Origin: Stramenopiles sp. TOSAG23-3
Lineage: Eukaryota
Assembly (NCBI GenBank): GCA_900128585.1
Contig: LT642167.1
Location: 1-47,020, forward strand
Reading direction: 5' to 3'
Length of the DNA: 47,020 nt
The position numbers were made by a program, and so were the translations under genes. A model generated the notes under the pieces. It saw only the letters and a list, made by a program, of their open reading frames with translations, did not search any database and was not told where the DNA came from. Of this stretch, positions 1 through 31,425 are shown in pieces (position 1 is the first letter of the stretch; every line of letters begins with the position of its first letter).

Positions 1-212
1 TCTTTTACTATTAGAGCTTTACAGCATGTCTTCTTTTCCTTCCTCTGCTGCGTTATTAGAGATTAATAAAAAAAAAAAAGCTGAAAGAAAAAAAAACAAA
101 AGGAGAGAGGCCACATTGTTTTAATCGGAGGGGAACAACACAGCAGTGTTTTCCCCTTTTTATTTCGATTAGTTCGCAGCAGTAGTATTACAGGAAGACG
201 ATAAATTTACGT

Positions 213-246
213 AACTACTTAAATAACAGCCAATTTTTTGTTTTAA
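213..246 (-). repeat. Dispersed 3'-flank element, copy A
   Basis: Minus strand reads TTAAAACAAAAAATTGGCTGTTATTTAAGTAGTT, ~62 nt past the kinesin stop. The related sub-motif CTGCGAACT lies at ~171-179. Confidence 0.8.
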
Positions 247-307
247 TACTTATATACGAAACACACTCTACACTACAAAAGATTGTGAGCAATGTTAATT
301 ATAAAAT

Positions 308-3300
308 TCAATAGCGAAGCGAACGATCTTTGGTATTCCGACTGCGGTAATTGTTCAAATTAGAGACATCAACGGGATTCTTCTTATGCTCTCCATGAAA
401 GCGTTTCTGCGAAGGAGAAATGTAACGATGCGACTCTACACTCAATTTGTCAGCTTTTTTCAAGAGTCCATTTATCTTTTTGACGTGCGGAATGCCTGCG
501 GCGGCAGAATTTTCTTTCCTCGCACCAATGCCATTTTCTTTGTCACGTCGGCGAGTGAACAGCGCCAATTGAGACCATACCAAATCGTACAAGGTGCCTC
601 CATTTGCACGAACATTTTTTGCGACTGGGGCAAGGTCCCAGTACCCAGCCATATCGAGTGGCGAAAGACCATGGCGGCTTATGATTCGTGCATCCGCCCC
701 CCTCAATAACATGCTATCGATGATTTGTGTCGCCCACTTGTAATAGGCGCGACCATCACCTTTTTGGGAAATTCCCGCGATGGCTTTGCAGAAACCCAAC
801 AATGCCGTGTTTCCATATCGATCTTGCGCGTTTATGTTAATCTTTTTGCTGGTCATTGATAAGCAGTTTGACACTACAGAAACGTGGTCGTCGGCTAAAT
901 TGATGCACGGGGGAGGCATCGAGAGGAGCAAGTGGAGAGGGTTTCGACCGCAGTGATCAATTGCACTTTTTTTGCCGATCCACGCAGCTTTGTAAGATAT
1001 CAAGTATCGCACGATTGGAATCCAGTAATTGGTACCCGTCCACACTCCCGCCGTTGCACTTGAGGGAGAACCCATGGCCCGACGACTAAGGACAATGCAA
1101 AGTGTCAATGGGGTGAGACCATCCTTTGATTCTGCATTTACATCGGCACCATGCTCGACCAGCATCTTGATTATTGGAAGGCTCATAGCATTCATTCGCC
1201 TAATTTCAATATGTAACGCACTTTCCCCGTCAGAATTCTTATGAGAAACGTTCACAGAGGGCACCGACAAGATATTGCGTAGCAGCGACATCGACTTCTT
1301 TGCTGGCATGGACGTAAGTGCATGCATTAAAACTGTATTCCCGTTCTCATCGACCTGGTTAAGGTTGAACCCGTTGTCCAGCAGAACGCTAACGCACTTT
1401 TGCACTCGGGATAAATCCCCATGATAGTTCAGCCCAGTAATTGCACGGTGAATTGGAACCAGGTTTGGGGCATGGCGTTCATTCTCAGAGAATATTTTTG
1501 GCCGCGAGTTTACTGCCTTTTTCAGTTCGTGCAATTCTCCGTCGTATGCTGCCGAGTGAATGTTTGCTATAAACTCTTCTTCTTCGTTCTCGTAGCTGGT
1601 GGGGGATGCATGCAACTTCGAGGAACGCAACGAAATACCTTTCCAAGCTTGTGGGGTGCGTGAATTGTTTTCTTGCTTCATAGACTTTCTGTCTTTTTTC
1701 TCCAGTGGAATGGTGCTGTCAGCACTTGGGGTACTGACTAGTTTGGCAAAACTAGAAGGCCGAAGACTATCAAATTTCGAAGTGTGAGCAAGCTGATCAA
1801 TAGACAAACTAGAGACAGCACGAAACCGTTTCAGTTTTTTGAATGCATTCTTCTTAACAGATAAACACCTATGGTCTTGATGCGCCATGACCTTTAAGAG
1901 TGGTTCATAGTGCTTTTTTCGCACATCAGTTTGACTCCGGGATGCCACTTCAGTCGCTTCTTCCAAGTGTTTTTCGACATCAGAAAGTGCCTTTTTTGCA
2001 CCACTAGTTTGCGCTTCGACTTGGAATTCCAAGTCTTCAAGAGCTCTCTTGTGCTCAATTGATTGGGATTTAAGCTGCTCCTCGAAGTTTTCTTTCAGCT
2101 CCTTATATTTTTCTACCGCTGAAACAAGTTTCTCTTTCAAAGCCTTTACTTCTTTATCATGCGAGACAAGCACGGATTCCATTCGAACAGAGACAGCGTT
2201 TTTTACAGCAGTTTTGGTCAGTTCTTCGTGATCCATTATCATTTTTCTGATGTATTTTGTATTGCTAGACTCAATATTTGCAATTTTATCAATGTAGTTG
2301 TCATGAATGCTTTTGAGAGCCTTGTTGTGTTTTTCTTTTGTGCTTTTGATCGCCAAATCCTTCTCCACAAACTTTTCCTCAAACTTCTTAACGACTTCAT
2401 CGTTTACAGCATTGTTCGCCTTCTTCAGTTCTTCTTGATGCTCTACTTTCATTTCTTCAATTTGTTTCTTCAACACTTCTACAGAGCTTGAACTTTCTTG
2501 GTTTGCGGTTGCCAACTTAACTTCATATGCTTTAACTTGATCCGTTAATGCTTTCCTCAATATTGTTTTGTTTTTTCTATTCTTTTCTGAGCTTTCTTTG
2601 AGGCGTTCTTCAAACATCTTTGCCTGATCCTTGAGAGCTGTTTGAAGCGCTAATTCCGTTGATTCTTTTGCGGCTTCCAGGGAAGATATTTTTGATGTGA
2701 ATTTTACCTCCAACTCTTGCAACTGCTTGTTCCTTTCTTTGCTGTCTTTAGATTTAATTTTTTTCAGTTGAGCTTTTAAAGAAGATATCGTTGACTCGGC
2801 TTCAGTAAACTTCATCTGCGATTGTGCCATATCGTCTTTCATTGATTCTTGCATGTCTCGTTCTCCAGTCAATGTGCTTTTCAATTCATCAATTTCACGC
2901 TCTTTCTCCGACAAAATCTCTTCTTTCATTTGTGCAACAATTGTGTCGTACTTTGCGCGTTCTAATCCAATCGTCTTGTTTATCTTTTCTTTGAAATCAT
3001 TTTCCTGTTCTGATATCATTTGAGAAAACTGCTCTTGGACTTCTTCACATTTTTTTGCCACAGATTCAGCGACCGACCTTCGGTTCTTTTCAGCAAAATC
3101 CTTTTCCATCTCACAGATCTTTTTCGCAAACTCGTCTCTTTCCTGTTCAAGGTTAGCTTGGGCTTCTTCCAGTTGTTTCTCATATTTTTCGCATACTTCG
3201 TCGCTATACTTTCTGAGGTTCACTATTTGAAACTCGTAATCTTCCTTTAATTTTTCTACGTTATCTCCATGAGCCTTCTGCATCTCTTCTTTAGTGCTCT

Positions 3301-6300
3301 CAACAGAATCTCTGACTTGGATTTCACAATCATTTTGTAATGCTTTGAAATCAACTTTATTTTTCTCAGAGTCCTCCTTTCGCAACTCATTTAAGGCTGC
3401 AATTTTCTCTTCGAACAATTTCATTTGAGAATTTAATGCGGTTTGGAGAGACAATTCCGACGCCTCTTTTGCAGATTTCAGGGAATTTATTTGAGATTCA
3501 TACTCATTTTTCTGCCTTTGAACTTCTGCAGATATTTTTGATTCATTCATTTCCGACATGGTCGAGTACTTTTCTTCCGTGACTTTCATTAGCTCTTCTG
3601 ACTTAGCATTTAGAAGAGATAGTTCTTTCACTTTTCTGGACTGCTCATCAAGTTTTTCTTTCAGTAATTTAGTCGCCGCAAGATACTTCTTTTCAATACT
3701 AGCATGCTTTTTTTCAGCATGGCGTAGAGCTTTCTTCTTATCATCATGGTGTTTTTTGATTAAAAACGCAATCTCTTCTTGCTTTTCTGAAGATATTTGA
3801 ACAAGGGCATCGTTATTTTCTCGGGCTAGCTGTTGACTTGTGGCGCACATTTCGTTGATAGCTATCTCATGATCTTTTATGAGTTTACTCTTTTCTGCAT
3901 TTAACGTTGTACCGAAGAAAGTTTCGTTAGCTCTCTGCTTCCACACAAAAAATGCCTTGACCGTCTTTCGTTGCATATAGATTGAAGAGAGCTTTGACAT
4001 GCATTTGCAAAATTGAGAAATGCTCTTTGTTTGATTTTTCCATTGCTGGAAGTGCAATTTAATTCGTCTAGTCATAAATTTATTCAAAAAGTGCTCAAGT
4101 GCGCGCGCTTGAAAACCCGATCTAGAATTCTCATAGACGTTCAGTTTCTCACTCAAGTCTCTATTTTTTTCTTTTAATGCTGTCTTTCTCCAAGTGTAGA
4201 ATGCAATCTGGGAATATCGCTTCGATACCATTTTTAGTACAGACGATAAAACTGCCCTGTTTGATTTGCTTTTTGTGGCCATGGTTCGGTTGCTCGCGTC
4301 TTCCATCTCACATCTTATGTTCTGCAATGTCGTTGTGTGTGTAAATCTGAGCCATGCCCGAAACGATTTATTCGTTAAGCGGTAATTTTTCCGTGCAATT
4401 TGAAACTTCGAGCAACTCTCAGCTGTACTATTCTGCAGAGCTTCGTATGCCTCTTCACTCTTTTCTTTTTCAGATAACATTGTATCATGAAACGCTACTT
4501 TTTGTGTTTTTTGCTGCATTAAGTACTTGTTTTGAAGCTTTTCTTCTAAATCAGAGTATTTTTTCATAAATTCTTCACGAAGCTCACTCATTTTTTCTTC
4601 GCTTTCTTTCGCATGCACTTTACTTGCCATTTTTAGTTCTTCAGAATGCTTACTTTGCAACAGATTGATAGCCTGCAAGCGCTCGTTTTCTGCTTTTAAT
4701 GCCATGCTTTGTAGAGCACTTTTAAATTCATGCTCACTCTTTTGTATTAATGATTCTTTTTCCTCCTCGGCTTTGCTGAGCTTCTCAGATTTTATGCGTT
4801 GCGCCTCATTTAGATCCCTCTGATGAGCCTCTTTCAAAAGCGCAATTGCAGATTCATGATGATCGGTTTGTGAAGTCATTTTTGTTTCAAGAACACTCAG
4901 TTTTTCATCCCACTGAGCTTTCAAATCGCCTTTTTCTTTCTCACACTGAACCTTCAGCTCTGAAATGCTATTTGACTTTTGGGCTTCAAATCCCTTTTGT
5001 AGTTCGGCTTTTAAAGCCCTTATCTCTTCAACATGAGATGCCTTAATTGCCGCAATAGAGGTGTGCAAAACATCTTTTTGTTTGAATTCGAGTAGCTCAA
5101 GTTCTTTTGAAGAAGAGTTTTTGAGCGCTTTTAACTCATCTTCATAGTGGCGTTTAAGGCTAGACATTTCTAGCGCGGACCGTTCCTTAACATGCCTTAC
5201 AGTTTCTTCTTGCATGGTCAATTTCTGCTTTGTCAGATCCAGTTCTGATTTCCATGTTTGCTCCGTAGATAAAAGTTTAGACGTGGCGCTCTCAGTTATT
5301 TCCACAAGACGTTGTTCATGCTTGGCAACCATTTCATTTCGATCTGCAGCAAATTTCCCCCTCAAAAGCTCAATTTTCTCGTTAAAGGTTGCTTCCATCT
5401 CCTTCGCTTTCTGTAAAGAGTTCTCTTGGAGAGCATGGAGATCTTTGTTGTACTGGTCCTTTAAATTCGAACTATTTTCAAGCTTCCGATTTTCAAACTG
5501 TTGCTCAGTCTGTTTTAATTTATTATCATAGGTGTTTTTAAGGGCCTCGATCTCCTTTAACTTGTCTTTTTGTAGTTGATCTGTAGCGATTCGCTCTTGG
5601 GCAGACTGTTTTTTAAAATCAGCGAACTGCATTTGAACCCTCGCCAATTCTTCTTTCAGTTGAGTAACTACGTTTTCATTAGCTCTGTTTTGATCAGCGA
5701 GTTGTTTTTCATAGTTTTCACTCCATTTCTTTTCTTGTGCTGAAAGATTTTGTTCCCACTTAATCGATTCGTTTTCAATAATAGTTTTGGATACGTTTTC
5801 TATTTTTGCTGTTTCCATTAGTGCCGTCTCTTTCTGAATGTTTAAAATTGCGGTTGAATGCTCTTCCTTCAGCTTTAAGACAGTGTTTTCATGCGTTTGA
5901 GTAAGCTCTTGAAATTTTCTCGCGCTGGACTCTTGAGAAGATCGAGTTATTTGCTCTAGTTCCACCTGCTTTTTTGAAAGGGCAGTTTCAAGAACTTGTT
6001 TCTCTTTTTCTAATTCCTCACTGAATTCTTTCCGTATCTTCTGTATTTCACTAGCGTGTTTATCGTTAGTCTGTCTTAATGATTCGCGCAGCTCCTGTTT
6101 TGTCGCAATGGTGTCTTCCTTTCCTTTTGCGTTGGCATCTGATAATGCCTTTTTATGATTTTCATTGATTTCTTCAATTTGCTTTTGGAAAATTTGAGCG
6201 TTTTCTTGAAGGCTGCGTTGAAGTTCTTGCGCAAACTGGGATTCACACTCTTTTCGACTAGTTTCAATTCTATTTTCGGTGAGATGAGCGAGATTTATGT

Positions 6301-12650: not shown

Positions 12651-12926
12651 CTTTAAGGCAATCGTTCTCTGTTACGTTCATCTCATGTACATATAAATTA
12701 TTACAAATGCCGTTCCGTAATGATTGCGGGGGTGGTATGATTAAAAATCTTCCCCCCTTTTTAAGGTTCCAAGTAATGCCGTGCCGTGGTCAAAAGACCG
12801 TTCTGAAAAAAAGTTAAACACAGAGATAACTCTATAAAAATACTTCGTAAGTAATAAAAATTAATTCTTAAAAATTGTGCACCTTTCATCAACATATCTG
12901 CATGTTTCTCTCCAGTCCACCGTTCA

Positions 12927-17270: not shown

Positions 17271-17630
17271 ACCTCTTCTATGAAGAGAAAGTGTATTGGG
17301 CGTATAGTTAAACTACGCACGAGGTAAGTAAGGCCCTCCTTGTTCAGACCGTGCAAAAGGGTACCCTCACCAAACTGTTTGGAACACAAACAACTTGTTA
17401 CTTTTCTTCTTCTTAGTCATCAACTTCGCAATCATAATCCATCCATCCCCATCGATCATGTGTACATAATACATAATATATATTATAGTTATTATTATTA
17501 TCGAAATTATTTATTCTTCAACAAACAATCAACAAAACAATCCATCATTTCAGGTATTGAATTAGTCTAACTCGTACTGTAGTATGTGTAATAAATAAAT
17601 AATATTATTTTTTTTTGTGAAAAAATTCGT

Positions 17631-17841
17631 CTTCTTCTTCTTCTTCTTCTTCTTCTTCTTCTTCTTCTTCTTCTTCTTCTTCTTCTTCTTCTTCTTCTTC
17701 TTCTNNNNNNNNNNNNNNNNNNNNNNNNNNNNNNNNNNNNNNNNNNNNNNNNNNNNNNNNNNNNCTTCTTCTTCTTCTTCTTCTTCTTCTTCTTCTTCTT
17801 CTTCTTCTTCTTCTTCTTCTTCTTCTTCTTCTTTCTTCTTC
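17631..17841. repeat. (CTT)n microsatellite spanning a 60-N assembly gap (17705-17764)
   Basis: Pure CTT repeats on both sides of the N run. Confidence 0.98.
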
Positions 17842-18329
17842 TAATAATACTATTTTATTAAAAAAAAAAAAGGAATCTCCTTCCTCCTCCCCCCTTTATT
17901 ATTTTATTATAAATTTCTCTTCTTCTTCTTTTCCCTTATTCTCTCCCTTATTATCGAATTTCCGGGTGGTGTACAGTACGTACAGTAGCTGGTATTCTTC
18001 CAATCAGAACGTTTTGTTTTTTAAATTAAAAAATCAACCTGCTACTCGTGTACCGTTGAAAAATAGAATAAATATAATATATATAATACACACAGTAGTA
18101 TACGAAGTGTCATATTTTTTATAATTATTTGAACAAAAGATAGTAATGTTTCATTGGTGAGTATTAACAAAAAACATTAACATGAGCAAAGAAGTGAAAA
18201 CAAAAGCACAAATTTAGAACTAAGGGTATCTTCATTGACACGATAAAGAAGAAACGGTAAAAATTGTAGTTCGTTCGTGTTACTCTTGTGTTACTGAATT
18301 TCCATTACTTTGGTGTGACCATTTGGAAC

Positions 18330-21300
18330 ATGCTGATCTTCGTCCTGGCCTTGTTGATGCTTTCAGGCGGATGGTCTTCACCGCATGCAAACTTAGAAAT
18401 TCCCCCATTGCCAAAATTCGGCAAGGCGCTAGATGCGGCAAGCGCGAGTATTGATAATGCATGTTTCGTTGGGGCTTATAGAGTAGAAGTGGACCAGGCG
18501 AAGGGCGCTGAACAATGTAGTGGGTGGAAACAGTGCGAGTTGGGTTTCTACTGCTTGAACGGGGGAAAACACCCGTGCCCAGCGGGTCGATATGGATCAA
18601 CAACTGGCTTGAAGTCACCGGATTGCTCAGGACCCTGCCCACCAGGCCACTATTGCCCCCCTCAAACGACAAATGGGGAAGACTACTTGTGTGGAAACTC
18701 AGCGCATTACTGCCCTAGTGGCTCTGAGAGCCCAGCGAAAGTTCGAAGCGGGTTCTATTCCACTGGCAATGGCAATGATAGATTCAATTCGACGAGAACA
18801 GGGGAGTCACTGTGTGAGGCAGGTTCATACTGCGTTGGTGGAATAAAACAGCCCTGTCCAGCAGGGCGTTACGGCCTTCACACTGGCATGGGGTTGAACA
18901 GTTTTGATTACGTTCTTCAGGGGGATCGGAGCAACAGATGTGTGGCGGAAGGCAGCAGCATCATCACAACCGTGGAAGAATGCAGGAACGCGGCAGCGTT
19001 TTTGAAGATCAATTTTTTTTCTGACCCAGGAGGGTTCTCCAACAAATCAGTACCAAGTGGGTGCGTATACCGGGCCGGTTCTAACCAGTACAACCATAAG
19101 GTCTTGTTCAACACGCACCCTAACACTCACCTAAACATGGTAGAAGAGCATAACCCAAAGGCAACGGGGTGGGAGACCGTGTGCTCCCAGCGGATGCCAT
19201 GCTCTGGCATTTGCCACGCGGGATACTATTGCCCCGCAGGCAGCACGTCTCCCCGTCAGTACCAGTGCAACGGAATGACTAATGACGGCGCAGAGAAAGG
19301 GTTGAGGCAACCCGTCCAGTTTTGCCCTGAAGGATCGGGGATACCGCAAATACTGCAGGAGGGCGGGCACGCGCAGGAGGCGCAACCAAATGCACACTTT
19401 GCGTTACCACCGTCTGGTACAGTTACAAAATTGTCAATTAGAACTGGGGAAGAATTGTGCCTCGCAGGCCATTATTGCCTAGAGGGGTTGTCGTACAAGT
19501 GCCCTGCGGGAAGGTACGGGGTGCGGCGCGGAGAAACGAACCCTTTGTGCACTGGTCCATGCTTGGAAGGGTACTACTGCCCGGAAGGCAGCATAAGCGC
19601 AAAGGAGCGCAAGTGCATGGGCACAAACGAGTTTTGCCCACCTGCGTCCCGATCTCCGGCTGCTGTACGAAACGGATTTTTTACCATTAGTTCGTACAGC
19701 GACGAATTCATTGCACTTCAGCATGGAAAACTTGACAGCGATGTCCCGTCTACAATGACTCACGAGGCGCAGTGCGGCTCTGGGCGATATTGTATCGATG
19801 GAGTCGCGTTCAAATGTCCTGCGGGGCGGTACGGAAGTGAGGCAGGCCTCACCTCTAGCGAATGCACCGGCGCTTGCGAAGCGGGTTATTTTTGCCCCAT
19901 TGGGAGTGTGACAAAACGGCATTCAAACTGTTCATCGCCTGCAGTGTTTTGCCCAGAAGGGAGCGTTGAGCCGCTTCCCGTACACGAAGGTTACTACACC
20001 ATTGGAGGCGACGAGCAGCATCGATGGGACGAAGTACGGTGTGAACTAGGACACTGGTGTACTGGTGGTACGCGGAAGCCCTGCCCCTCCGGTCGCTACG
20101 GCGCTTCCGTGGGCTTGCACAGCGAAACTTGTACCGGAATCTGTGCGCCTGGATATTATTGCCCGCCTGCATCGTTCGAAGCCACTCAAAAACAATGCGG
20201 CGGCCCGCACCTTTACTGCCCGGAAGGCTCATCCACTCCCATCCCCGTTCTTTCAGGGTACCACACGGTAAGGGGCGGTCCGCCAGCCCTTTATACGGTA
20301 GAGCTAAGCGTTGACGACAGGGTGCCGTTTTCTTCATGCCGGAATGCCAGTAATTATTCAAGGTGCATAAACAGGTGGGACCCAGTTCGAAAGTTTAGAA
20401 TTGTAGAAGACCCAGACCCTAGCATGAACATTCGCTCCACTCAAATCCCCTGCTCCCCTGGCTACTTCTGCATCGCGGGCGTACGATTCATTTGCCCATC
20501 TGGGCGGTACGGGAGTCTGTATAATGAGACCCGGTCGGCATGCGAAGGCGTTGCTCGGGCCGGGCATTTCACGTCCCCCGGCAGTACCAGTGTGGGCACA
20601 ATCAACCGTATCCCTCCAGTGTATTCTGCCCTTCTGGAGACAATGATGTTACGTTCGTGGACAAGAAATCCCCCGCCAACACAGGATCATGGAAGTACGT
20701 GGAGGTCGATTTGCCCAACGGCCGTGTGAACCAGGGCATTACTGCGACAAGGGAATAAAAATACGTTGTCCCGCAGGGCGGTACGGAAAAACGTGGAAGC
20801 TAGACTCTATCGATTGCACGGGAGAGTGCGACGCAGGGTACTATTGCCCCCCAGGATCGAACAGCAGCACACAAAAGGAATGTGGAGACATCGAAGGGGC
20901 GAGGTCCCCGTGCTACGTTACCCCCACTGGGTTGGTAGAAAGTACTCGCCGGTCGGGCGAGCGCAGATGTGAGTATCCACACGCCGACGAGAACAAGCGC
21001 TGGCCTAAAATGATGGAAGACTACGGAAACGGGTGGAAAACTGTTCACCACTACGAGAACGAATGGCTTCAGGAAGGCCAACCGAGGCATTTTCATTTTC
21101 ATATTAGCCAACAGCACCGCTCTCGCACAAAATCAAGCGGGCTGCCCGCATCCGTATATTGCCCGAAAGGGTCATCGCTTCCCACGAACGTTCGCCCGGG
21201 GTACTACACGATCGGAGGAAACAATGCGACGAACAGAACAAGGGTCGAGGAGGTACCATGCAAGACGGGACACTTTTGTGAGCAAGGTATGATTTTTCAA

Positions 21301-21525
21301 TGCCCGCCCGGACGTTACGGTAGTGTCAAGGGTCTGACGGAAGAGCACTGCTCTGGATTTTGCCCACCTGGGCACAGGTGTGGATGGAACACTACAACTC
21401 CCGAGGAGTGCGCCCAAGGGTATTACTCGAGTGGTGGGTGGGCATACTGTATGAAGTGCCCAAGAAACCCGCGCACTGAGTCCGTTCAAACTTGCAAAAC
21501 CGGGCGTAAGTGCTGCAGCATGTGA
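18330..21525 (+). CDS. Secreted cysteine-rich repeat protein (GCC2/GCC3, ephrin-receptor-like repeats) with two apparent -1 frameshifts near 20585 and 20650-20710
   Basis: Signal peptide MLIFVLALLMLSGGWS from the ATG at 18330. Recurring CPAGRYG..C.G.C.AGYYCP.GS...CG...FCP.GS units continue across track ORFs 18288-20729, 20540-20758 and 20689-21525. Confidence 0.8.
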
Positions 21526-21587
21526 CGCGTGCTTGAAATTACGAAAGTATTAATTTCTTATGATATTAGAAACAAAAAACCGGTTGC

Positions 21588-21620
21588 TTTAAAAAAAAAA
21601 TTAGCCCCGTTATTTAAGTA
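21588..21620 (+). repeat. Dispersed 3'-flank element, degenerate copy B
   Basis: TTTAAAAAAAAAATTAGCCCCGTTATTTAAGTA, ~63 nt after the stop at 21525. Confidence 0.55.
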
Positions 21621-21776
21621 CTTTTGTGGTTAAAATTCTTACAAACAAAATAAACTTATGCGTAATTACATTGCGAATAAATTTTAAGTTTAAACTCAGC
21701 ATCGCCTCGACCCTAGTAGTGCCACCCTCGGATGAAGACACAGGGAATCAGAGCATTGCCAGCAGGACGAGACTCC

Positions 21777-21815
21777 AACTGGCACGCCAACTGGCACGCC
21801 GACTGGCACGCCAAC
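21777..21815 (+). repeat. 12-bp tandem repeat (ACTGGCACGCC[A/G]) x3
   Basis: Directly visible tandem copies. Confidence 0.9.
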
Positions 21816-22129
21816 GAACCACATCCACCGCACTGCTGATCGAAAATGACACAAACGACCCTCCCCCGACATCCCACCCCACAGATGACAATCCCTTGAA
21901 TGATTTACAAGGCAGACAACGAGCACCTCTAAAACAATTACGCCGCTGCTGTGAAAATCACACAAGGAATGAGTCACCTATGAACGAGACACTGGACGAG
22001 GAAGTTGATTATGGGTCATTTGGAAGCACTGCTTATCCATCTACCGATTCAGGCCATGAATGGTGAGAACGATAGTCAATACTAAGTGACAAGGGCATAT
22101 TGATTAGTAAATCCAAAAGGGCAAAGACA

Positions 22130-22246
22130 AGTTCGCAGTACACGAAGGAAATGTAAACCTTGAAAGTCTAAATCTAGAGTTCAGCTCGCAGTACATTAAT
22201 TTTAATCACTGAAAAATAACAGAGAGCCAATTTTCTTGTTTTTAAA
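22130..22246 (-). repeat. Dispersed 3'-flank element, long copy C
   Basis: Minus strand TTTAAAAACAAGAAAATTGGCTCTCTGTTA...ATTAAAATTAATGTACTGCGAGCTGAACTCTAGATTTAGAC aligns over ~95 nt with 28833-28925. The sub-motif AGTTCGCAGTACAC recurs at 22130 and 22324. Confidence 0.9.
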
Positions 22247-22410
22247 GAAAAAATACCTAAAATTCAGGGGTGTTTTATCATATCTAAAACAAGAAAATAA
22301 ATGAAATCACAACAGTAGAGATTAGTTCGCAGTACACCGAAGGAATGTAATGGACAAAAAGCTGAGTAGATTCATTTTCGCGGTATATGAGAAAGCTAAA
22401 ATTTTAATTA

Positions 22411-23679
22411 CTATAAGTGCAGATGTGTCATGGCGTGGACAGAGCCACTTCTATCGGCACCTGTATTCGGATCAATAAATTGCCCGTCTTCATTGCGTAC
22501 ATGCTCCAATGGATTTAACTTCCACCTTCCGTACTTCTCACCCGACTCTGAATTTTGTCGCTTCATTTCCCTATGACGAAAAAAACTGAATTTCACAAAC
22601 AGCACAAAATTTGCGTAAATCAGCAAAGAGATGGCTTTACTACTCATAAAATTAATGACGGCGCCGTTAAGCTTTGTAACCCGATCGTCGGTCTTACAAA
22701 CAATAGGCCAACCACAAAGTGCTGGGGTGCATGCACAGGAAGTGTCTGTACCATTCGCGTTCTTCACCGAGCAAAGCTCACGCTCCGTATCCTTCTGGAC
22801 ACACTGCAGAAGAATGCCGATTGTAAGAGAACCATTCACCAGCATGAAAATGATAATTAAGAACTTTCCCAACCAACGAAAGAATTTTCTGCAACAGACA
22901 TAGCCATCGCCAGAGCAACATCTACAAATGGCGCAAGGTTGCAAGACAGTACTAAATATTGTCAGAAGAATGGCTATATAAATCGAACTTATAGAGGCTG
23001 CATTTGACTCGCAATTGGTATTGTTATGCAAAACGAATGCTAAAAACGAAGCAAAGAACCAAGTGGCGGTCACAAAATAACACCGCCGTTTCCCTCTCAA
23101 TGGGTTGTGTTCGTGAGCGAAACAAATGCTAAATAATTCATGTTGGTTTTTCCAGTAAAAGCGAAAGTCTCCACAGAATGTGCCATCCGACGTGCCTTGA
23201 AACTGAGGTCCAAAGTGGACGTCACCGAGCAAGAATTTGTGAACAATAGGGTCTCGAACTTCCTTTCTCACCAGCTCTTTCGTAGCAGCTACCACCTTCT
23301 CACCCCCTCGGGTTATCCCGAACGCTACCGCCGCCGCCGCTCCGGCAGTTTTGTTCTTCAGCGCGGACAGCCCTTTGCTAGCTGCGTTTTCCAAGGTCGT
23401 TTGGGTCTCGTCCCTCGCTTTGTTTAGGGTGCTCCCAACGAAAGGCACACTGCAGAATTCCATTTTCTGGAACATTTTGTTTTGCGCCCGATCGAGCCCA
23501 TCTTCGAACTTAGATACATGGGCCGTGGCAGCATTTCCAGCTCTGCCGACCGAGGCCACCATTTTGTTCGAGGACGCAACAACTGCGATGTCAGCTTGTT
23601 TTTGCGCTGCGTCTACCACGTCTTCTGCCGCACCCCGGAGTTTCATCCCAGCACTTTGGTTCACCGAAGCATCTGACAT
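22411..23679 (-). CDS. Hypothetical multipass membrane protein (Ala-rich amphipathic N-terminus, ~4 TM segments, Cys-rich loops)
   Basis: ORF of ~422 aa from the ATG at 23679 with several hydrophobic segments. QHELFSICF..HNPL...RR loosely resembles the polycystin juxtamembrane motif. Confidence 0.7.
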   Translation of the reverse strand: MSDASVNQSAGMKLRGAAEDVVDAAQKQADIAVVASSNKMVASVGRAGNAATAHVSKFEDGLDRAQNKMFQKMEFCSVPFVGSTLNKARDETQTTLENAASKGLSALKNKTAGAAAAVAFGITRGGEKVVAATKELVRKEVRDPIVHKFLLGDVHFGPQFQGTSDGTFCGDFRFYWKNQHELFSICFAHEHNPLRGKRRCYFVTATWFFASFLAFVLHNNTNCESNAASISSIYIAILLTIFSTVLQPCAICRCCSGDGYVCCRKFFRWLGKFLIIIFMLVNGSLTIGILLQCVQKDTERELCSVKNANGTDTSCACTPALCGWPIVCKTDDRVTKLNGAVINFMSSKAISLLIYANFVLFVKFSFFRHREMKRQNSESGEKYGRWKLNPLEHVRNEDGQFIDPNTGADRSGSVHAMTHLHL

Positions 23680-24456
23680 TTTAATAGAGAAACAATCCCT
23701 GAAGCATAGCACCGTGCGATATGTGCCCCCCCCAACGTCCTTTTTTTTTCTACTGAAAAGGCTCTTTAACTTTACAGTTAGTTCACAAGTGTACAGTTGT
23801 CATATATTACCCCAATCAATAATAATAATAAAAAGTATATTAAATATATAATTCTACAGTAGTACCAATAGGAAGTTTGTCAATATATTTCTCTTCTTCT
23901 CTCTTCTTCTCTCTTCTTCTTCTTCTTCAGTCACTGTAGTCTTCTATCATCAAGAAGAGCACAGTAAAAAATTCAACAACACACAGTAAGCTGGAGCGGG
24001 GGAACGGTTCCTGATATTAATACCTGGTACGGATACTAGCTATTAAAATATGGGTTCCAGTGCTTTCCCTTCCGTACCGTACCAGGTATTTAATATAATA
24101 CCGTACTACTTGGCACTACGGTGGTGATTTTTAATAATAATAATATTATTAAATTTAATTATATATTAGAATAGTCGTCTAATACTGTATTAATAGGTCT
24201 ATAAAAAAATAATTATTATTTATTTTATTTTTTGTTGTTGTTGTTTTTTTGTTGTTGTTGTTGTTGTGTAAAAAAACAAAAGTCGTCCATCTACTATATT
24301 AAAAATCAAAAGATTAAAATATATAAGTATTTTGCATTTCCGAAGAAAGAGATTAAGTTTAAAATTGCACACCGAAACACAACTACTATTTAATAAAAAG
24401 GAAGTGCCCCCCACACAGACAGACACTTTTTCAAAGATACAATCTAAATATCAACC

Positions 24457-25527
24457 ATGTCGCTTGCGTTTTCTTTTGCTAGTGGAATGGCAGTCGGGTT
24501 GGCAATTCGCCGGAGCTACTCCGTACGAACTAGTCCGTCGTATCTATTCTTCTTTTCCACGAGGGGGCGAAGTGGATGGGGCACAAAGAAAACCCGTGCA
24601 GATTTAGAAAGTAGAATTTCTGAGTTTTGCAAAGAGGAAGAATCTAAGAATCCAGAGGACGAGACACAGGTTCTGGTGAAAAGTTTGGCTGGTAATGTAG
24701 CCGAGCGTGACGCTGACGCGTTCGATGTTCTTGGCGAGTTTCGTAGATTCTTAAAGACGGAGTACCTCGGTCGCACAGGATTTTACGCTCCTGTGTTGCC
24801 TTCGTCACAGACGCTGCTGTACGAGTCTTTCGACGGCGTGCTTCAGGAAGGGCTCATTTGCATCGTTGACAGGCAGAGCAAGGGCAAAGGGCGGGGTGGA
24901 AACTCTTGGGTCTCCCCGCAGGGGTGCGCGATGTGCTCGTTCAAGTTCCAAGAAACGAGCGGAAGGAAGGTCCCGTTCCTCCAGTACTTGATAGCTCTGG
25001 CCGTCCATAGGGCGATAAAGTCGCTTCCGGGCGGGGAGCACATTGACGTGGGGATCAAGTGGCCCAACGACATATACGTTGACAAAAAAATAAAGATTGG
25101 GGGTGTCCTCTCGCAGAGCAAATTTTCGGACAACAAGTTTGATGTGACCATTGGCATGGGCATTAACACTACGAACGAGGAACCGACCGTCAGCTTGAAT
25201 TCGAAGTTGCCCAAAGGCTTTCCAAGAATTTCGCGCGAACAACTGTTGGCGGAAGTGTTGAATCAATTCGAATCGATGATGCCCACATTCCGAAAGGAAG
25301 GCTTTAAACCATTCCACGAGGATTACAAGCGGGCATGGCTGCACACGGACCAGAACGTCCAGGTTTGCCTCAAAGATGGGAAGGACCCGATCATGGTGCA
25401 AATCAAGGGGATATGTGAAGCTTCCGCGGGTTTGTATGCCATCGACAAGAACAACAAACCGTATGAGCTGTATCCGGATGGCAACTCGTTTGATTTTTTT
25501 AAAGGCTTGATTCGGCGAAAGCTATAG
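24457..25527 (+). CDS. Biotin--protein ligase (holocarboxylase synthetase)
   Basis: QSKGKGRGGNSWVSP, IKWPNDIY, KIGGVL, GMGIN, and the eukaryotic-type C-terminus PDGNSFDFFKGLI. Confidence 0.95.
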   Translation: MSLAFSFASGMAVGLAIRRSYSVRTSPSYLFFFSTRGRSGWGTKKTRADLESRISEFCKEEESKNPEDETQVLVKSLAGNVAERDADAFDVLGEFRRFLKTEYLGRTGFYAPVLPSSQTLLYESFDGVLQEGLICIVDRQSKGKGRGGNSWVSPQGCAMCSFKFQETSGRKVPFLQYLIALAVHRAIKSLPGGEHIDVGIKWPNDIYVDKKIKIGGVLSQSKFSDNKFDVTIGMGINTTNEEPTVSLNSKLPKGFPRISREQLLAEVLNQFESMMPTFRKEGFKPFHEDYKRAWLHTDQNVQVCLKDGKDPIMVQIKGICEASAGLYAIDKNNKPYELYPDGNSFDFFKGLIRRKL

Positions 25528-26077
25528 TGATTAAAATAACACACGCACGCCTACAAAAGTTATGAAAAAGAAAACAGAATAATGCCTTAGTATAGCAAAA
25601 TAAAATAAAAATACGAGTAGAAACTTTCTTCACAAAGAAAAGAAAATGATGATGGTCAATTCTATTTATTCTTCTTCTTCTACCTTATTAGTATCATGAT
25701 AGAGATAGTCTAGTGTCTGCGTACCACCCATGATGATGTCAACTTTCTTCTTAGCAGAAGCCTTCTGCTAAAATAAATAGGAGAGGAGAGAGGAGGTGAG
25801 GTGATGAAACTCCTCGTACTTCTTTATTTTATAGCTCCTCGTAGAAATCGAAAGTAGTCTAAGAGTCAGCACATTTTCATTGTATTATTATTCGACGGAC
25901 GACGATTATTAATATAAATACCCTATTATACTATACTTAATATTGGAATTAGTTTACATAAATAAAACTTCTTCTTTTGCTTTTCCTCCTTCTCTTTATT
26001 ACGAAGATGTAATACGAGGAGTAGTCATATGTACGTTGTTGGAGACACAGAATGAAAATAATAATAGCTTAACAGCA

Positions 26078-26391
26078 AGAAGAAAGAAGAAAGAAGAAGA
26101 AAGAAGAAAGAAGAAGAAGAAGAAAGAAGAAGAAAGAAGAAGAAAAAAGAAGAAAGAAGAAAGAAGAAGAAAAAAGAAGAAAGAAGAAAGAAGAAAGAAG
26201 AAGAAAGAAGAAAGAAGAAGAAGAAGAAAGAAGAAAGAAAGAAGAAGAAGAAAGAAGAAGAAAGAAGAAGAAAAAAGAAGAAAGAAGAAGAAGAAAGAAG
26301 AAGAAAGAAAGAAAGAAGAAAGAAGAAAGAAGAAGAAAGAAGAAGAAAGAAGAAGAAAGAAGAAGAAAGAAGAAGAAAGAAGAAGAAAGAA
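26078..26391. repeat. ~310-bp pure purine (GAA/GAAA mosaic) simple repeat
   Basis: Only A and G on the + strand across the tract. Confidence 0.97.
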
Positions 26392-26626
26392 CACCACACA
26401 AACCGTTGATTTCAGCAGCGTTTTTTTGTCAGCCGACTAGTTTTTTGTAGCACAAATGCCACAACATAAAGTATTATTCATTACTTAGGAACAAATGTGA
26501 AGAATTGCAAGTGTAGGAAAAAACTCAATAAAACTAATCCACATTTGAGATAACTTTTGTTTTACTTTTCACTCTCTTGTTGTAAGATTATTCGCCCCCC
26601 TTTTTTTTGGCTGGAATACGGACAAA

Positions 26627-28769
26627 ATGAGGATGTTGCCGAAGAAAAAGCCCCTGCCGTCGTTGCTCACGCGGACCCTGGGGCAAGGTCGGCTTGCAAA
26701 GGAGCGTTTGAAAGTGCTGCTGCTCACTTTTTTGAGTTATATGTGTTTTCATGCGTCGAGAATACCACCGAGTATTACGAAAGGGGTCCTACATCCCCAC
26801 AGCGAGAGTGCCAATACCGTTGGTTCCTACAATCCTCAGTCGAACCCAGGCTGGTTGCCGTTTTCACAGGACCTGGTTCCAGAAAAAGTTCTACACGCGG
26901 GCTACCGAATCGACAATTCAAAGTTGTGCTCCCTAGACAACGCAGGCAAATTCTCATGCTCACACCAAGTGAAATCAGAGAATAAAGATGGTTCGGTTTC
27001 GTATTGGTGCAATAGGTACACTTCGAAAGATTTCAAGTTTAAGTTGAACCACTTGACGGGATCCAGTACAAAGACAAACTGCGGCATTGCCAACAGCACG
27101 CGATGCTGGGAAATCACTGCTATTTACGAAAACATAACCAGTGCAGAGAAGCAGAAATATTGTACCGACAAAGACTGTGCTCTTTTCGTTCAAAGTGGTG
27201 GTTATCGTCTTCCTGCCGAAGTTGATTCCGACACCGTCCAGTGGGTGGCGGCGCATGCTCTCGATGGGAATCCCCCGGACGTAGTGCCAGAAATTACCAA
27301 TGGTAAAATTTTGCTTGGCAGCCTGATGACCGTTTATTTGCTCTTTTACGCCGGTGGCATGTTTGTGTCTGGGCATATTGCCGATCAAGTGAGCTTGCGC
27401 CTGTTCCTTTCGTTTGGAATGATGGTATCCGGGATTTTGGTTGCAGGTATTGGTTTTGCCAGAGCGCTCGATCAGCACAGTCTGGTGTACTTTTATTCCG
27501 TGTATGCCGTTCAAGGCCTTTTCCAAAGCATTGGGGTAAGTGATCGTTTCGTCTTTACAAACCTATGTACATCTCTCATAGCTAACAACACCATGTCTCT
27601 TTGTCTTTTTCCAGTGGCCCACGGTTGTGGCAGTAATGGGAAATTGGTTCGATAAGTCCACTCGAGGATTTGTGATGACGGTTTGGAATAGCCACACTTC
27701 TGTAGGAAATATTGTCGGAAAGGCTTTGTCCAGTTTTGCCCTAGGCTTCAGCGGCGGCGAGGCAGACCTTAACAATGGGAACAATTGGCCAGCGACGTTC
27801 TTCGTGTGCGGTGGTCTAATTTCTTCGATGAGTGTGTTTGTGTTTTGCTTTTTAAAGAATTCCCCAGAAGATGCTGGTCTTCAAAAGGTTGTGATGGAGT
27901 CCGACACTGCACTACTCAAAGAGGGCCCCGACCGTGAAAACCCATTGCTGGACGCTGGCGCAAGCAAATACGGGACCACTCAAAGCAGTGGCGACACACC
28001 TAAGTCCAAAGAGGCGACCGGTATTTTGCGAGCCCTGGCAATTCCTGGGGTCGTTGAATTCGCGCTTTCGCTGTTTTTCTGTAAGTTTGTAGCCTATACT
28101 TTCATTTACTGGCTACCGTACTACCTCGGGCACGTTGGATTTCCAGCGGAAACGGCTGGGTATTTGTCAATTTTTTTTGATTTAGGTGGCATTCCCGGGG
28201 GCGTGCTTGCGGGAGTCATTTCTGACAAGGTTGGAGATCGCGGGGTTGTAATATTCGTTTATCTCGCGCTTACAATCCCGAGCCTTTACGCGTACCGCGC
28301 GATTACGGAAAACTTAGGGGATACGGCCATTGCTATCCACGTGATTTTGATGCTTGTGCTGGGTGCTCTTGTGAACGGACCGTACGCTTTGATTACAACT
28401 GCCGTTTCCGCCGACCTTGGTCAGCACCAAAGTTTGAAAGGGTCGAAGGCATTGATGGCCACAGTTGCTGGAATCATAGATGGGACTGGTAGCGTAGGGG
28501 CAGCGGCGCAAGGGTTGGTTATTGGAGCACTTAGCTCTTCGTGCAGGGGGTGGGATGCTGTATTTTCTGCGCTCCAATTTGCCTCTGCAATGTCCGCCAT
28601 TTGTTTAGTGCGAATGCTGCTCGCTGACATTGGATCTGAGCCAAGTGGGCGGATGTCCCTTCACAAGATATCCGTTTATGCCGCTGTGCTGGCTCTTGTT
28701 GGGGCAGCTGTGTACAACGTCGTAACAATGGTAGAAGATTGCGGTGTGCAAGATACGATGTGCACCTAA
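26627..28769 (+). CDS. MFS sugar-phosphate exchanger, SLC37/GlpT family; 2 exons (26627-27535, 27615-28769)
   Basis: FHASR, GWLPF, YAGGMFVSGHIAD, spliced QSIG|WPTVVAVMGNWF, WNSHTSVGNI, KFVAYTFIYWLP, VNGPYALITTAVSADLG, IIDGTGSVGAA. Confidence 0.93.
27536..27614 (+). other. Spliceosomal intron (79 nt)
   Basis: GTAAGT donor, GCTAAC branch point, pyrimidine tract and CCAG acceptor. Removing it joins two ORFs and restores the conserved GWP motif. Confidence 0.93.
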
Positions 28770-28832
28770 ACAGGAAAGGGATGACTCTGAGAGATGCACT
28801 GAAGTAAAATTCTCTCTTAAAAAATGAAATAA

Positions 28833-28925
28833 TAAAAACAAGAAAATTTTGCTGTTATTTAAGTAATTAAAATTAATGTACTGCGAACTGAAATCTAGAT
28901 TTAGACATTCTAGGTTTTTACATTT
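28833..28925 (+). repeat. Dispersed 3'-flank element, long copy D
   Basis: TAAAAACAAGAAAATTTTGCTGTTATTTAAGTAATTAAAATTAATGTACTGCGAACTGAAATCTAGATTTAGACATTCTAGG, ~64 nt after the stop at 28769. Confidence 0.9.
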
Positions 28926-29010
28926 ATAAAGTTTTTAAATCATTGCTAGTCCTATATTCAAAAGCAAAAATTCTTTAGTAAGATTAATTTGATGTGGGAG
29001 CCTTCATTTC

Positions 29011-29595
29011 TTAAACAATCGTCGGATCAATCATTTCAACCAATTTCAGTTCAAACACAAGCACTGAACCAGGCGCAATAAGAGAACCGTGCCTTTTATT
29101 CCCATAAGCAAGGTGGCTTGGGATAAAAAGTTTGTACTTGTCCCCTATTGACATCATCATGAGCGCCTCTTGCCAACCTTTAATGACTCCCCTTGGCCTA
29201 AATACTCGATTAACACCTTTATCAAAAATTGTACCATCGATCAATCTCCCTTCATATGTACATTTGCACCTCGTATTTAATGATGGGGTTTGAACAAAAT
29301 TATCGTTATGGTAGAGAACCTTGTACTGCAGCCCAGATTTCGTAACCTTCACTTCCGGATCATTCCGTACATTCATCTCTAGAAAATCCATGCCTTCTTC
29401 AGCCGATGGAGACGCGTAGGGATTTAAAGCAACAAGAGCAAATACGAGGAAAATTACTGCCCCAAGAGAATATAAAATCACTTTCGATTTGAAATTTTCC
29501 CGGTCTAGCTCTGCCTGACGCTCCCTTCTGTCTTCTTCTAATCTGCTCTTCTTTCGACTGGGTATATCTTCCCCTCCCTTTCTTTTTCTGATCAT
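29011..29595 (-). CDS. Membrane-anchored FKBP-type peptidyl-prolyl isomerase (Mip-like)
   Basis: Basic N-terminus, one TM, then VKVTKSGLQYKVL, YEGRLIDGTIFD, VIKGWQEAL, IPSHLAYG, PGSVLVFE. Confidence 0.93.
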   Translation of the reverse strand: MIRKRKGGEDIPSRKKSRLEEDRRERQAELDRENFKSKVILYSLGAVIFLVFALVALNPYASPSAEEGMDFLEMNVRNDPEVKVTKSGLQYKVLYHNDNFVQTPSLNTRCKCTYEGRLIDGTIFDKGVNRVFRPRGVIKGWQEALMMMSIGDKYKLFIPSHLAYGNKRHGSLIAPGSVLVFELKLVEMIDPTIV

Positions 29596-30093
29596 TGTAT
29601 TCTAGCATTGTAGAAGGGAATTTGATTCTACTACGACGGCTAGATACCCAACATAATCATTTCCCTACTTAAACATCTAAAATATTTAAAATTCATTATT
29701 ATTTCAATTCCTCTTTATAATCCAGAAGTGGTGGTTGTTATAATAAATATGTTCTTGAGTTTTTATATAATATTTATTTCTTTCCCACCATCGACACCGC
29801 CCTCTCCTCCTCCTCCTTTACTTATTATTACAACAAAAAATACACAAAAAAAAAAAAAAAGGAGAAGAAGATAATAGGAGGGAGGAAGAAAGAAGGAAGA
29901 CGCGACCGACGATGAATATGAATAATAAATTCCAATAATAATAATAATAATAATAATTGAAAAAAAATATCTTTTTCTTCCGCCGATCGACGGCGGAACC
30001 TCTAATTGAAAATGGAGCACAAGAGTTAATCTTTTTTTTCTATTGATATTAAAAAATTGAAAAAGACCCAGCGCATGTTCTACTTTTTTGCGC

Positions 30094-30633
30094 ATGAATG
30101 CAAATAAGGCAACCATGCCTTTGCCGATTTTAAATGTTATTTTACACCGCCCAATAATTCCTTGGAATACTGGGAATATTGGAAGAACTTGTCTTGGCAT
30201 GTCTGCTGCATTGCACTTGATTGATCCGGGGTTTGATATTGGTGATAAAGCTACGAAGCGGGCTGGTCTAGATTATTGGAAAGATGTTAATTTGCACGTG
30301 TACAAGGATTGGAAACACTTTGAAGAGACAGCTGTACCGCTTCTGAAGTCGAACGTGTTTATGTTTTCCAAGTTGGGAAAGCATGGAGAAAAACCGCTTG
30401 AAGCCACTAATTTTTTCGAGTCTCAACGTCACTTAAAAACCGACGATAAAATTTTGGGGCTTCTCTTCGGCAGTGAGCATACAGGTTTAGATGGGATATG
30501 TCCGATTGCAATAGAAAAATACGACAGGGTTTTCTTGCCAATGAACGGCGAAAATATCAGAAGTTACAACCTGAGTTCGTCAGTGGCAATGGGTATGTTT
30601 GAAGCTCATCGACAGTTTCAGTCCACCCCATGA
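30094..30633 (+). CDS. trmL: tRNA (cytidine/uridine-34 2'-O)-methyltransferase, TrmL/SPOUT family
   Basis: PIIPWNTGNIGRTC, LHLIDP.GF, KRAGLDYW, LLFGSEHTGL, PM...RSYNLSSSVA. Start is ATG 30094 or 30115. Confidence 0.92.
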   Translation: MNANKATMPLPILNVILHRPIIPWNTGNIGRTCLGMSAALHLIDPGFDIGDKATKRAGLDYWKDVNLHVYKDWKHFEETAVPLLKSNVFMFSKLGKHGEKPLEATNFFESQRHLKTDDKILGLLFGSEHTGLDGICPIAIEKYDRVFLPMNGENIRSYNLSSSVAMGMFEAHRQFQSTP

Positions 30634-30858
30634 GAGGAAGTACCCCATGAGAGGGGAAGTAATCATGGTAGCCATGGCGAGGCATTTGTACATAATATCA
30701 ACGCTCGTACGTCTCGCATGTGGAAGGTAAGAAGCCTTACACGGTTAATTCTTTCATTCGTTCGTAAGCATAACGTAGTAAAAGTATGTCTGTACATTCA
30801 ATATACTCAAAACAAATTTTACGAAAACTAACATGATATCATAAAAATATTATTGAAT

Positions 30859-30904
30859 GAAGAAACTTTAAAAACAAGAAAATTGGCTGTTAGAAGAAAC
30901 TTTA
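30859..30904 (+). repeat. Dispersed 3'-flank element, short copy E, flanked by a 12-bp direct repeat
   Basis: GAAGAAACTTTA [AAAACAAGAAAATTGGCTGTTA] GAAGAAACTTTA. Confidence 0.85.
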
Positions 30905-31081
30905 TGCGATGAATGTGTAACACCTCAAAGTGTCTGTAAAAATATTTTCTTCTTCTCCCAATTCATCCTTCCTTGCAAATGTAATTTGTTTTTGTTCCCG
31001 CTAAAGTCAAAAAGAGTGCTTTATTTCTAATTAAAACATACGATGCATTTGTTTTATTTTTTCTTTCAAAAATGATAAAAA

Positions 31082-31116
31082 AATTACTTAAATAACAGCC
31101 AATTTTCTTTTTTAAA
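31082..31116 (-). repeat. Dispersed 3'-flank element, copy F
   Basis: Minus strand TTTAAAAAAGAAAATTGGCTGTTATTTAAGTAATT, downstream of the ZNF598 stop. Confidence 0.85.
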
Positions 31117-31425
31117 AAACCTTTACAACACATTCGCGCGCCATCAAGAATATTTCACAGAGAGAGATGCTACAAGCAGGTTGTTAGGTTTCGCTCAAAT
31201 TAATCTAGAATTAAAACAAAGAATATATGTCTTCTGTGAAAAAATGTCTGAGGCAACTACATCAAGTAATCTATGAAAAGTTTACATGGAGCATGAGAGC
31301 CATCAAATCGTTATTGGAAGTGAAAAAATTGATCGTCGGGATGAAGTGCCCAAGAAACAGAGTGTGTCTTCCGTAGAGAAAATAGAGTGGAGAATAAGGT
31401 AGAGCAGAAACTTACCTGCAAACGG

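Follow-up and report, generated by a model that had tools for sequence, protein, structure and literature searches.

Long interspersed nuclear elements (LINEs) that carry a restriction-like endonuclease (RLE), among them R2, R4/Dong, NeSL/Utopia, CRE/SLACS and HERO, have a single polypeptide in which a reverse transcriptase is followed by a Cys/His motif and then by a nuclease of the PD-(D/E)XK type that contains a K..KY helix. L1-type LINEs have an N-terminal APE nuclease and a poly(A) end, and their copies are dead on arrival with a common 3′ end, lie at short AT-rich microhomology targets with variable duplications and, in mammals, are biased towards the antisense orientation relative to the adjacent gene. 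Within the RLE group, Utopia and R2 end precisely on the 3′ side and variably on the 5′ side, and most members use a single repeated target, such as ribosomal DNA (rDNA), spliced-leader genes, U2 small nuclear RNA (snRNA) genes or microsatellites (excerpts of PMC4640811). Safe-haven retrotransposons of compact genomes, such as Dictyostelium TRE and yeast Ty1/Ty3, are found at tRNA genes (excerpt of PMC6101501), where they use RNA polymerase III (Pol III) factors. Here we analyzed a stretch of 47,020 nucleotides (nt) from Stramenopiles sp. TOSAG23-3 (contig LT642167.1, positions 1 to 47,020; hereafter the window), for which a preliminary description had reported a strand-oriented repeat just downstream of stop codons. 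We found seven copies of this repeat at four loci, which are very probably 5′-truncated target-primed reverse-transcription products of an RLE-type LINE.

The element shares with Utopia and R2 the pattern of ends described in those excerpts of PMC4640811, and also, to judge from one clear and three candidate cases, target-site duplications of variable length. Judged from its sequence, the layout of the parent protein is that of an R2/NeSL-type retrotransposon without long terminal repeats (non-LTR), with a predicted reverse transcriptase, a Cys/His motif and a putative nuclease in one chain as in the RLE LINEs. Unlike R2 and Utopia, it has unique flanks with TTTA-like microhomology only; no single conserved repeated target of the kind of 28S rDNA or the U2 snRNA gene was found, and Rfam detected no rRNA or snRNA in the window. 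The copies are like those of L1 in their common 3′ end, their AT-rich microhomology targets, their variable and mostly candidate duplications and an antisense bias near genes, but the nuclease-like domain is C-terminal and RLE-like, and no copy in the window bears a long poly(A). As with TRE, Ty1 and Ty3, the host is gene-dense and the copies are confined to one harmless class of intergenic site within a narrow range of distances from a gene landmark, although the putative landmark here is the 3′ end of a protein gene instead of a tRNA gene.

Truncated copies and their protein-coding parent

We searched a collection of prokaryote genomes for a pattern of 21 bases taken from the repeat core and obtained three loci. 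Those in Aliinostoc and Nostoc (cyanobacterial Nostocaceae) were set aside as chance, the likeness being confined to the 21-base pattern, while the third, a 4.1-kb contig filed in a Dehalococcoidia metagenome-assembled genome (MAG; contig CALGTL010000157.1, hereafter L002), resembled the repeat far past the pattern. L002 contains a 971-amino-acid open reading frame (ORF), open at its 5′ side, with a tail of ~48 nt corresponding to the repeat on the plus strand, ~75–120 nt downstream of the ORF stop. Window positions 21693-22046 aligned with L002 2559-2888 at 76% identity over 354 nt (blastn, E 7e-75), and the frame at 21605-22066 matched the C-terminus of the L002 ORF at 69 of 122 residues (57%; BLASTP, E 2e-36). 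Given this homology, the previously listed copy at 22130-22246 is the 3′ untranslated region (UTR) of a 554-nt, 5′-truncated copy on the plus strand (21693-22246), in which a single open frame with the final ~122 codons of the element ORF (21693-22066) precedes the 3′ UTR and terminus (22067-22246). The match is restricted to this place, as 35 of 157 proteins of the family matched the window, all at 21693-22246 only. The 153-codon frame at 21605-22066 is to be regarded as a transposon remnant and not as a host gene.

These results change how the repeat is read. The tail in L002 lies on the strand of the ORF, which is the reverse of the orientation assumed in the preliminary description; the shared T/A-rich end does face a gene, as was stated there, but it is the element's own 3′ end, so that each copy is antisense to the gene that it faces. 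The suggestion of a small retroposon-like element was correct in kind, whereas the copies are pieces of a protein-coding LINE and thus not small, and a parent ORF was found in L002, though not as part of a full-length element. L002 itself is evidently misbinned, a bacterial MAG contig bearing a eukaryotic LINE ORF and tail. Directly past the 3′ end of the element, positions 3071-3440 of L002 form a near-perfect palindrome of ~370 nt that reaches the contig end (arms of 153 nt with 92% complementarity); this is a foldback element or else an artefact of the assembly.

Copies were located in the window by blastn-short with positions 28801-28960 as the query and by an nhmmer profile built from the copies, which matches its own members by construction. 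The first search returned 22155-22206 (minus strand, 92% over 52 nt), 31082-31099 (minus), 30869-30884 (plus), 22229-22244 (minus) and 216-230 (minus), with a weak match at 21609-21620 (plus). The profile re-found seven copies (E 1e-16 to 5e-4) and no further copy in any window spacer; its next match (40476-40510, E 0.042) fell inside the flippase coding region. All six copies of the preliminary description were therefore real and where they had been placed, while a seventh (22304-22416) had been missed and the one at 22130-22246 continues left to 21693 into the ORF fragment. The core 37-mer given there represents a genuine family but, as written, has only one match at ≤3 mismatches (31082-31118), because the other copies differ by indels. 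Copy lengths were 22, 37, ~50, ~85, 93, ~113 and 554 nt. The terminus ...CTTGTTTTTA was common to six of the seven copies and absent from copy H, and only the terminal ~22 nt were held in common, with variable 5′ ends; the reported combination of one shared and one variable end thus stands over a range of 22–554 nt, copy H excepted.

In the orientation of the element, copy E (163-248, plus strand) comprises ~85 nt of 3′ UTR and the terminus (nhmmer E 9.9e-17), aligns to the L002 tail and has its 3′ junction 61 nt from the kinesin stop (308-310, minus strand). Copy F (21588-21637, minus) is a degenerate tail of ~50 nt (nhmmer E 1.6e-4) with its 3′ junction 62 nt past the TGA (21523-21525) of a Cys-rich gene, and the 3′ end of the longest copy is ~165 nt from the stop that it faces. 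Copy H (22304-22416, plus; nhmmer E 1.7e-9) is the 3′ UTR of an L002-like variant that aligns to both L002 and the long copy, stops short of the last ~25 nt of the tail and overlaps the TAG stop (22411-22413) of the gene at 22411-23799. Copy A (28833-28925, minus; nhmmer E 6e-16) is a 93-nt piece with the 3′ UTR and terminus of the variant to which the long copy also belongs, aligned over 93 nt (28925-28833) with the 3′ UTR of the latter and at 92% over 49 nt with L002; its 3′ end lies 63 nt past the TAA (28767-28769) of a major facilitator superfamily (MFS) transporter gene and its 5′ end 85 nt from the FKBP stop. Copy D (30859-30904 including flanking repeats, minus) is a 22-nt tail at 30871-30892, identical to the L002 tail at 24 of 24 positions and placed 233 nt past the stop of a SpoU-methylase gene. 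Copy C (31082-31118, plus; nhmmer E 5e-6) is a 37-nt tail, 97% identical to L002 over 32 nt and 307 nt from the stop of a ZNF598-like gene (31426-31428, minus strand).

Two further stretches are doubtful. An exact 13-mer within 22280-22298 (minus, 13–19 nt; blastn-short E 0.087) may be due to chance and, if real, would have an orientation contrary to that of the other copies. An 18-nt look-alike of an internal part of the tail at 12848-12865 in the fourth convergent spacer (minus; 16 of 18 matches, blastn-short E 0.022) had no profile match, is AT-rich and may also have arisen by chance. Where copy H meets the gene at 22411-23799, the stop of that gene (minus strand) sits within transposon-derived sequence, and the element's AATTACTTAAAT appears as AATTACTATAAG at window positions 22404-22416; the present C-terminus and stop of the gene may be the product of the insertion or of a later deletion.

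The 3′ UTR is modular and exists in two variants, which have only the box (T)GTACTGCGAACT and the terminal ~45 nt in common. In the orientation of the preliminary description, this second box lies at 22130-22142, 22324-22336, 28877-28889 and ~165-175; it reappears within the 3′ UTR variants, and the long copy contains it in duplicate. The existence of two variants, the shortness of most copies (<120 nt) and the facing pairs (30867/31118 and 21588/22246), which resemble inverted repeats ~190–600 nt apart, could also be taken to mean that the short copies form a family like short interspersed nuclear elements (SINEs) that shares the LINE tail, or a miniature inverted-repeat transposable element (MITE) or DNA transposon with the facing pairs as its inverted ends. 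We consider this very improbable. Both 3′ UTR variants occur joined to the ORF, the variant of copy A and the long copy (A/B) in window 21693-22246 and the variant of copies E and H (E/H) in L002. The window holds no Rfam family and no tRNA or transfer-messenger RNA (tmRNA) gene (ARAGORN), and no tRNA-like or other RNA-gene head of the Pol III type was found on the copies. No LTR or terminal-inverted-repeat (TIR) structure was seen. The MITE reading of the pair 30867/31118 was rejected, as the 12-nt duplication that encloses the 22-nt insert of its left copy marks that copy as an independent insertion, and the outer flanks of the pair are not duplicated.

Reverse transcriptase and putative nuclease of the parent protein

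The ORF family is multi-copy, with six clusters of 6–116 member sequences each. It is widespread in protein sets from metagenomes, with 279 representatives at E ≤ 1e-3, of which almost all are short fragments. One member, P0130, is 95% identical to residues 1-133 of the L002 ORF and extends upstream into an ...AFADD... box, and the 1087-amino-acid P0277, 48% identical to P0130, displays DAKNAFN..., QGDP... and YADD boxes when read by eye. We take the DAKNAFN, QGDP and YADD (FADD) boxes to be motifs A, B and C of reverse transcriptases. Of the 30 named Atlas clusters that were nearest, 25 were assigned to RVT_1, and residues 1-255 of P0277 gave a Pfam RVT_1 score of 20.6 bits (E 3.9e-4). These signals, sub-threshold but concordant, suggest that the element encodes a reverse transcriptase. 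Family fragments covered the L002 ORF to a depth that rose from ~5 to ~40 towards the C-terminal third, a gradient that we discounted as a sign of 5′ truncation because fragmentary assemblies could look alike.

Past the reverse-transcriptase boxes, the same chain in P0277 continues with a C..C..H..C block and then PHN, QPD/QAD, E.WDVHF and K..KY (alignment A1). The R2 endonuclease is characterized by CCHC, RH, PD, D/E and K..KY motifs (excerpt of PMC4838377), and the PHN / QPD / E.WDVHF / K..KY series of the element parallels RH / PD / D-E / K..KY of R2 as given there. A first structure model was too weak (predicted local distance difference test, pLDDT, 51), while a second model built from 68 sequences reached a pLDDT of 79.9 and places a helix-strand-helix-strand core in the nuclease region. 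Among the Foldseek matches of the second model, R2 proteins ranked first (8iby_C, E 0.12), third (9dou_A) and 31st (8gh6_A), in a list that also included PA-N and bunyavirus endonucleases, Bse634I, SgrAI and Prp8; the top four matches of the weak first model were all R2 proteins. Motifs and model together point to a CCHC motif and a putative PD-(D/E)XK-like nuclease C-terminal to the reverse transcriptase. We assign the element to the RLE-bearing LINEs because of its domain order, its motifs and a fold match that is concordant, albeit statistically weak.

Pfam found nothing relevant in the L002 ORF and 12 relatives besides host domains in P0212 and P0126. In these two proteins a stretch of the element ORF is fused to FAE1/type III polyketide synthase (PKS) domains and to DUF229/sulfatase domains, respectively, and they are probably gene models running into a neighbouring insertion. 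The element is probably a diverged RLE-type LINE from a stramenopile-like protist that is not in culture, with a nuclease region that matches no Pfam family, a reverse transcriptase under the Pfam cut-off and a sequence similarity to R2 that is undetectable by HMMER.

Placement of the copies between convergent genes

The clearest insertion signature is that of copy D, the 22-nt tail of which is bracketed by perfect 12-nt direct repeats (30859-30870 and 30893-30904; TAAAGTTTCTTC in element orientation) that are a target-site duplication. Candidate duplications of 6 nt (TTTAAA) in the long copy, 5 nt in copy A and 7 nt, A-rich, in copy C are AT-rich and start with TTTA- or TAAA-like bases, and these duplications fit priming by microhomology with the ...GUUUUUAAA end of the RNA. 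No target-site duplication was found for copies E, F and H. The flanks of the seven copies and of the L002 copy showed no relation to one another beyond microhomology of a TTTA-like kind and a single common AACCGGTTTT, and the lack of any other common motif indicates that the element does not have a sequence specificity like that of R2 or Utopia. The shared bases, AACCGGTTTT(T)TGT, are found in the 3′ flanks of the L002 copy (3045-3060) and of copy F (21572-21587), and they may be a coincidence, belong to a tail that is longer in certain subfamilies or hint at a target preference.

Element DNA was confined to the left edge of the window and three of its four convergent spacers. No copy was found in the five divergent spacers, the three tandem spacers or at the right edge, in agreement with the preliminary description, which had seen none in the long divergent spacers. 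The seven copies at four loci include four or five insertions in spacer 21526-22410 and two in spacer 30634-31425. With element DNA removed, convergent and left-edge space amounts to 1529 nt compared to 8154 nt of other spacer, and all four independent loci fall within that 15.8% of spacer (p ~6e-4 by our arithmetic), showing that the confinement exceeds chance. The distances to stop codons also held up: the copies described as starting at +62, +63 and +64 are separated from the stops by gaps of 61, 62 and 63 nt with unrelated intervening sequences, and the remaining gaps are, with small changes, ~165, 233 and 307 nt. Confinement and spacing are thus real within the window, and purifying selection explains them at least as well as targeting does.

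By analogy with R2 and other LINEs, the RNA of the element would end in a conserved tail of ~45 nt, ...AATTACTTAAATAACAGCCAATTTTCTTGTTTTTA, and its protein would nick AT-rich DNA after TTTA-like sites, whereupon the nicked strand would prime reverse transcription from the RNA 3′ end. Copying would mostly stop early, which accounts for a constant 3′ end and a 5′ end that varies (22 to 554 nt), and a staggered second nick would yield duplications of 5–12 nt. Read in this way, the copies are dead-on-arrival insertions between convergent genes in the gene-dense genome of a protist, an ordinary phenomenon. Their confinement to convergent spacers most likely reflects mainly purifying selection in a compact genome. 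Divergent and tandem spacers would hold promoters, and convergent spacers are short once stripped of element DNA (155 nt for 21526-22410, 148 nt for 28770-29010, 276 nt for the one that has no confirmed copy, and 729 nt for 30634-31425), such that the zone past two 3′ UTRs may be the only surviving site; under such selection the 61–63 nt spacing would correspond to the end of a short 3′ UTR. Spacer 30634-31425 is much longer than the other convergent spacers and has no match to element proteins, and it may contain a small gene that has escaped recognition, long UTRs or repeats that are older and decayed.

Several results weigh against this explanation. For the protein, the RVT_1 score of P0277 residues 1-255 is under the 29.6-bit cut-off and a Pfam scan of the whole of P0277 gave no RVT_1 match; no Foldseek match reached E ≤ 0.001 (best E 0.076 and 0.12), and HMMER searches against solved structures with L002, P0277 and the A1 profile as queries found nothing. 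No full-length element was recovered, and the sequences found include nothing upstream of reverse-transcriptase motif A, the N-terminal part in which RLE-bearing LINEs have zinc-finger or Myb DNA-binding motifs and no APE endonuclease. Target-site duplications are clear in one of the seven copies, short and AT-rich in three and absent in three, and simple target-primed reverse transcription does not predict a copy without its last ~25 nt, such as copy H. Selection alone predicts neither three junctions within 3 nt of one another nor a 3′ end that faces the nearer gene, as was the case in five of the five copies with two known neighbours (p ~0.03). TTTA near stops occurred 15 times on the sense and 25 times on the antisense strand and is thus not commoner on the sense strand, which means that motif asymmetry does not explain the orientation of the copies.

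The 61–63 nt regularity and the orientation bias make active targeting a live alternative, although we regard it as rather unlikely. The same LINE would then be directed to transcription-termination zones, with convergent terminators as its safe haven, and would nick the sense (non-template) strand of the gene ~62 nt past the stop, at the poly(A) site or immediately beyond it, possibly because this strand is exposed by R-loops or a paused polymerase or because the element protein binds a 3′-end factor. Beyond the three independent 3′ junctions and the 3′ ends turned towards the nearer gene, such targeting would account for copy H abutting a stop, for repeated independent insertions in the same short spacers (21526-22410 and 30634-31425) and for the absence of copies from divergent and tandem spacers that are longer and more AT-rich (GC 0.26–0.33) and have abundant TTTA. 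However, the sample is tiny, two copies lie 233 and 307 nt from stops, and the difference between tandem or right-edge gene ends (0 of 4) and convergent-type ends (4 of 9) is not significant (Fisher estimate, p ~0.2). Furthermore, no ORF of ≥60 amino acids faces the 3′ end of the L002 copy within 400 nt, in a flank whose palindrome is possibly an artefact, and the flanks of the copies hold no target motif besides TTTA-like microhomology.

We regard it as unlikely that a LINE of the RLE type homes to the zones where protein genes terminate, always inserting antisense and guided by a landmark rather than by sequence. The papers returned by our literature search described neither such a specificity for this group nor a LINE that is aimed at the 3′ ends of genes or at convergent terminators. 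If the 61–63 nt antisense placement held genome-wide, it would constitute a new kind of safe-haven targeting and a free marker of 3′ UTR ends that needs no transcript data.

The preliminary description had also offered a 3′-end, termination or UTR signal as an explanation, and a host polyadenylation or termination signal on the sense strand of the gene, or a retrotransposon tail co-opted as one, would agree with a motif that is sense to the adjacent gene, nearly constant at 61–63 nt past the stop in three cases and A/T-rich like many poly(A) regions. This idea did not withstand the homology of the motif to the antisense of the 3′ UTR and terminus of a reverse-transcriptase element, with the ORF attached in two cases, and is exceedingly improbable. 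Copy D has its 12-nt target-site duplication, and lengths range from 22 to 554 nt with only the terminal ~22 nt in common. Of the 13 gene 3′ ends in the window, 6 have a copy facing them and 4 have one no more than 65 nt away, so that copies do not occur after most genes; none follows the lipoate-ligase, leucine-rich repeat (LRR), flippase, RING, FKBP, Sel1 or 11127-12650 genes. There was no Rfam match, and in RNA folding of five tails, taken from the strand of the element, no gain in stability over shuffles was seen (z 0.19, 0.41, 0.78, 1.61 and −0.73). For annotation, these stretches are better masked as retrotransposon fragments than taken as 3′ UTR signals, in line with our reading of them as LINE insertions.

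Host genes and other features of the window

The 47-kb window is eukaryotic and intron-poor, with long single-frame genes separated by AT-rich spacers (GC 0.26–0.39 across the window). Its gene set includes a 3105-amino-acid kinesin, a P4-ATPase flippase, a ZNF598-like RING protein, an FKBP, an MFS transporter and a lipoate ligase. The closest named relatives of the flippase are from stramenopiles (Triparma, Rhizochromulina and oomycetes; ~37–43% identity), and environmental proteins are 63–99% identical to it.

The Cys-rich gene next to copy F (18270-21525) contains five to six repeats of C.G.C..GYYCP and CP.GRYG motifs, had no Pfam match at E ≤ 0.001 and shifts frame between 20647 and 20729, by an intron or a frameshift. 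The MFS transporter gene (26549-28769) likewise consists of two overlapping frames (26549-27655 and 27582-28769), which suggests a short intron or a frameshift. A divergent spacer carries a long (CTT)n tract (17626-17850), broken by an assembly gap of 60 N at ~17705-17764, and a tandem spacer carries an (AAG)-rich tract of ~400 nt (26037-26437) with a 10-nt periodicity and a strand sense opposite to that of the (CTT)n tract.

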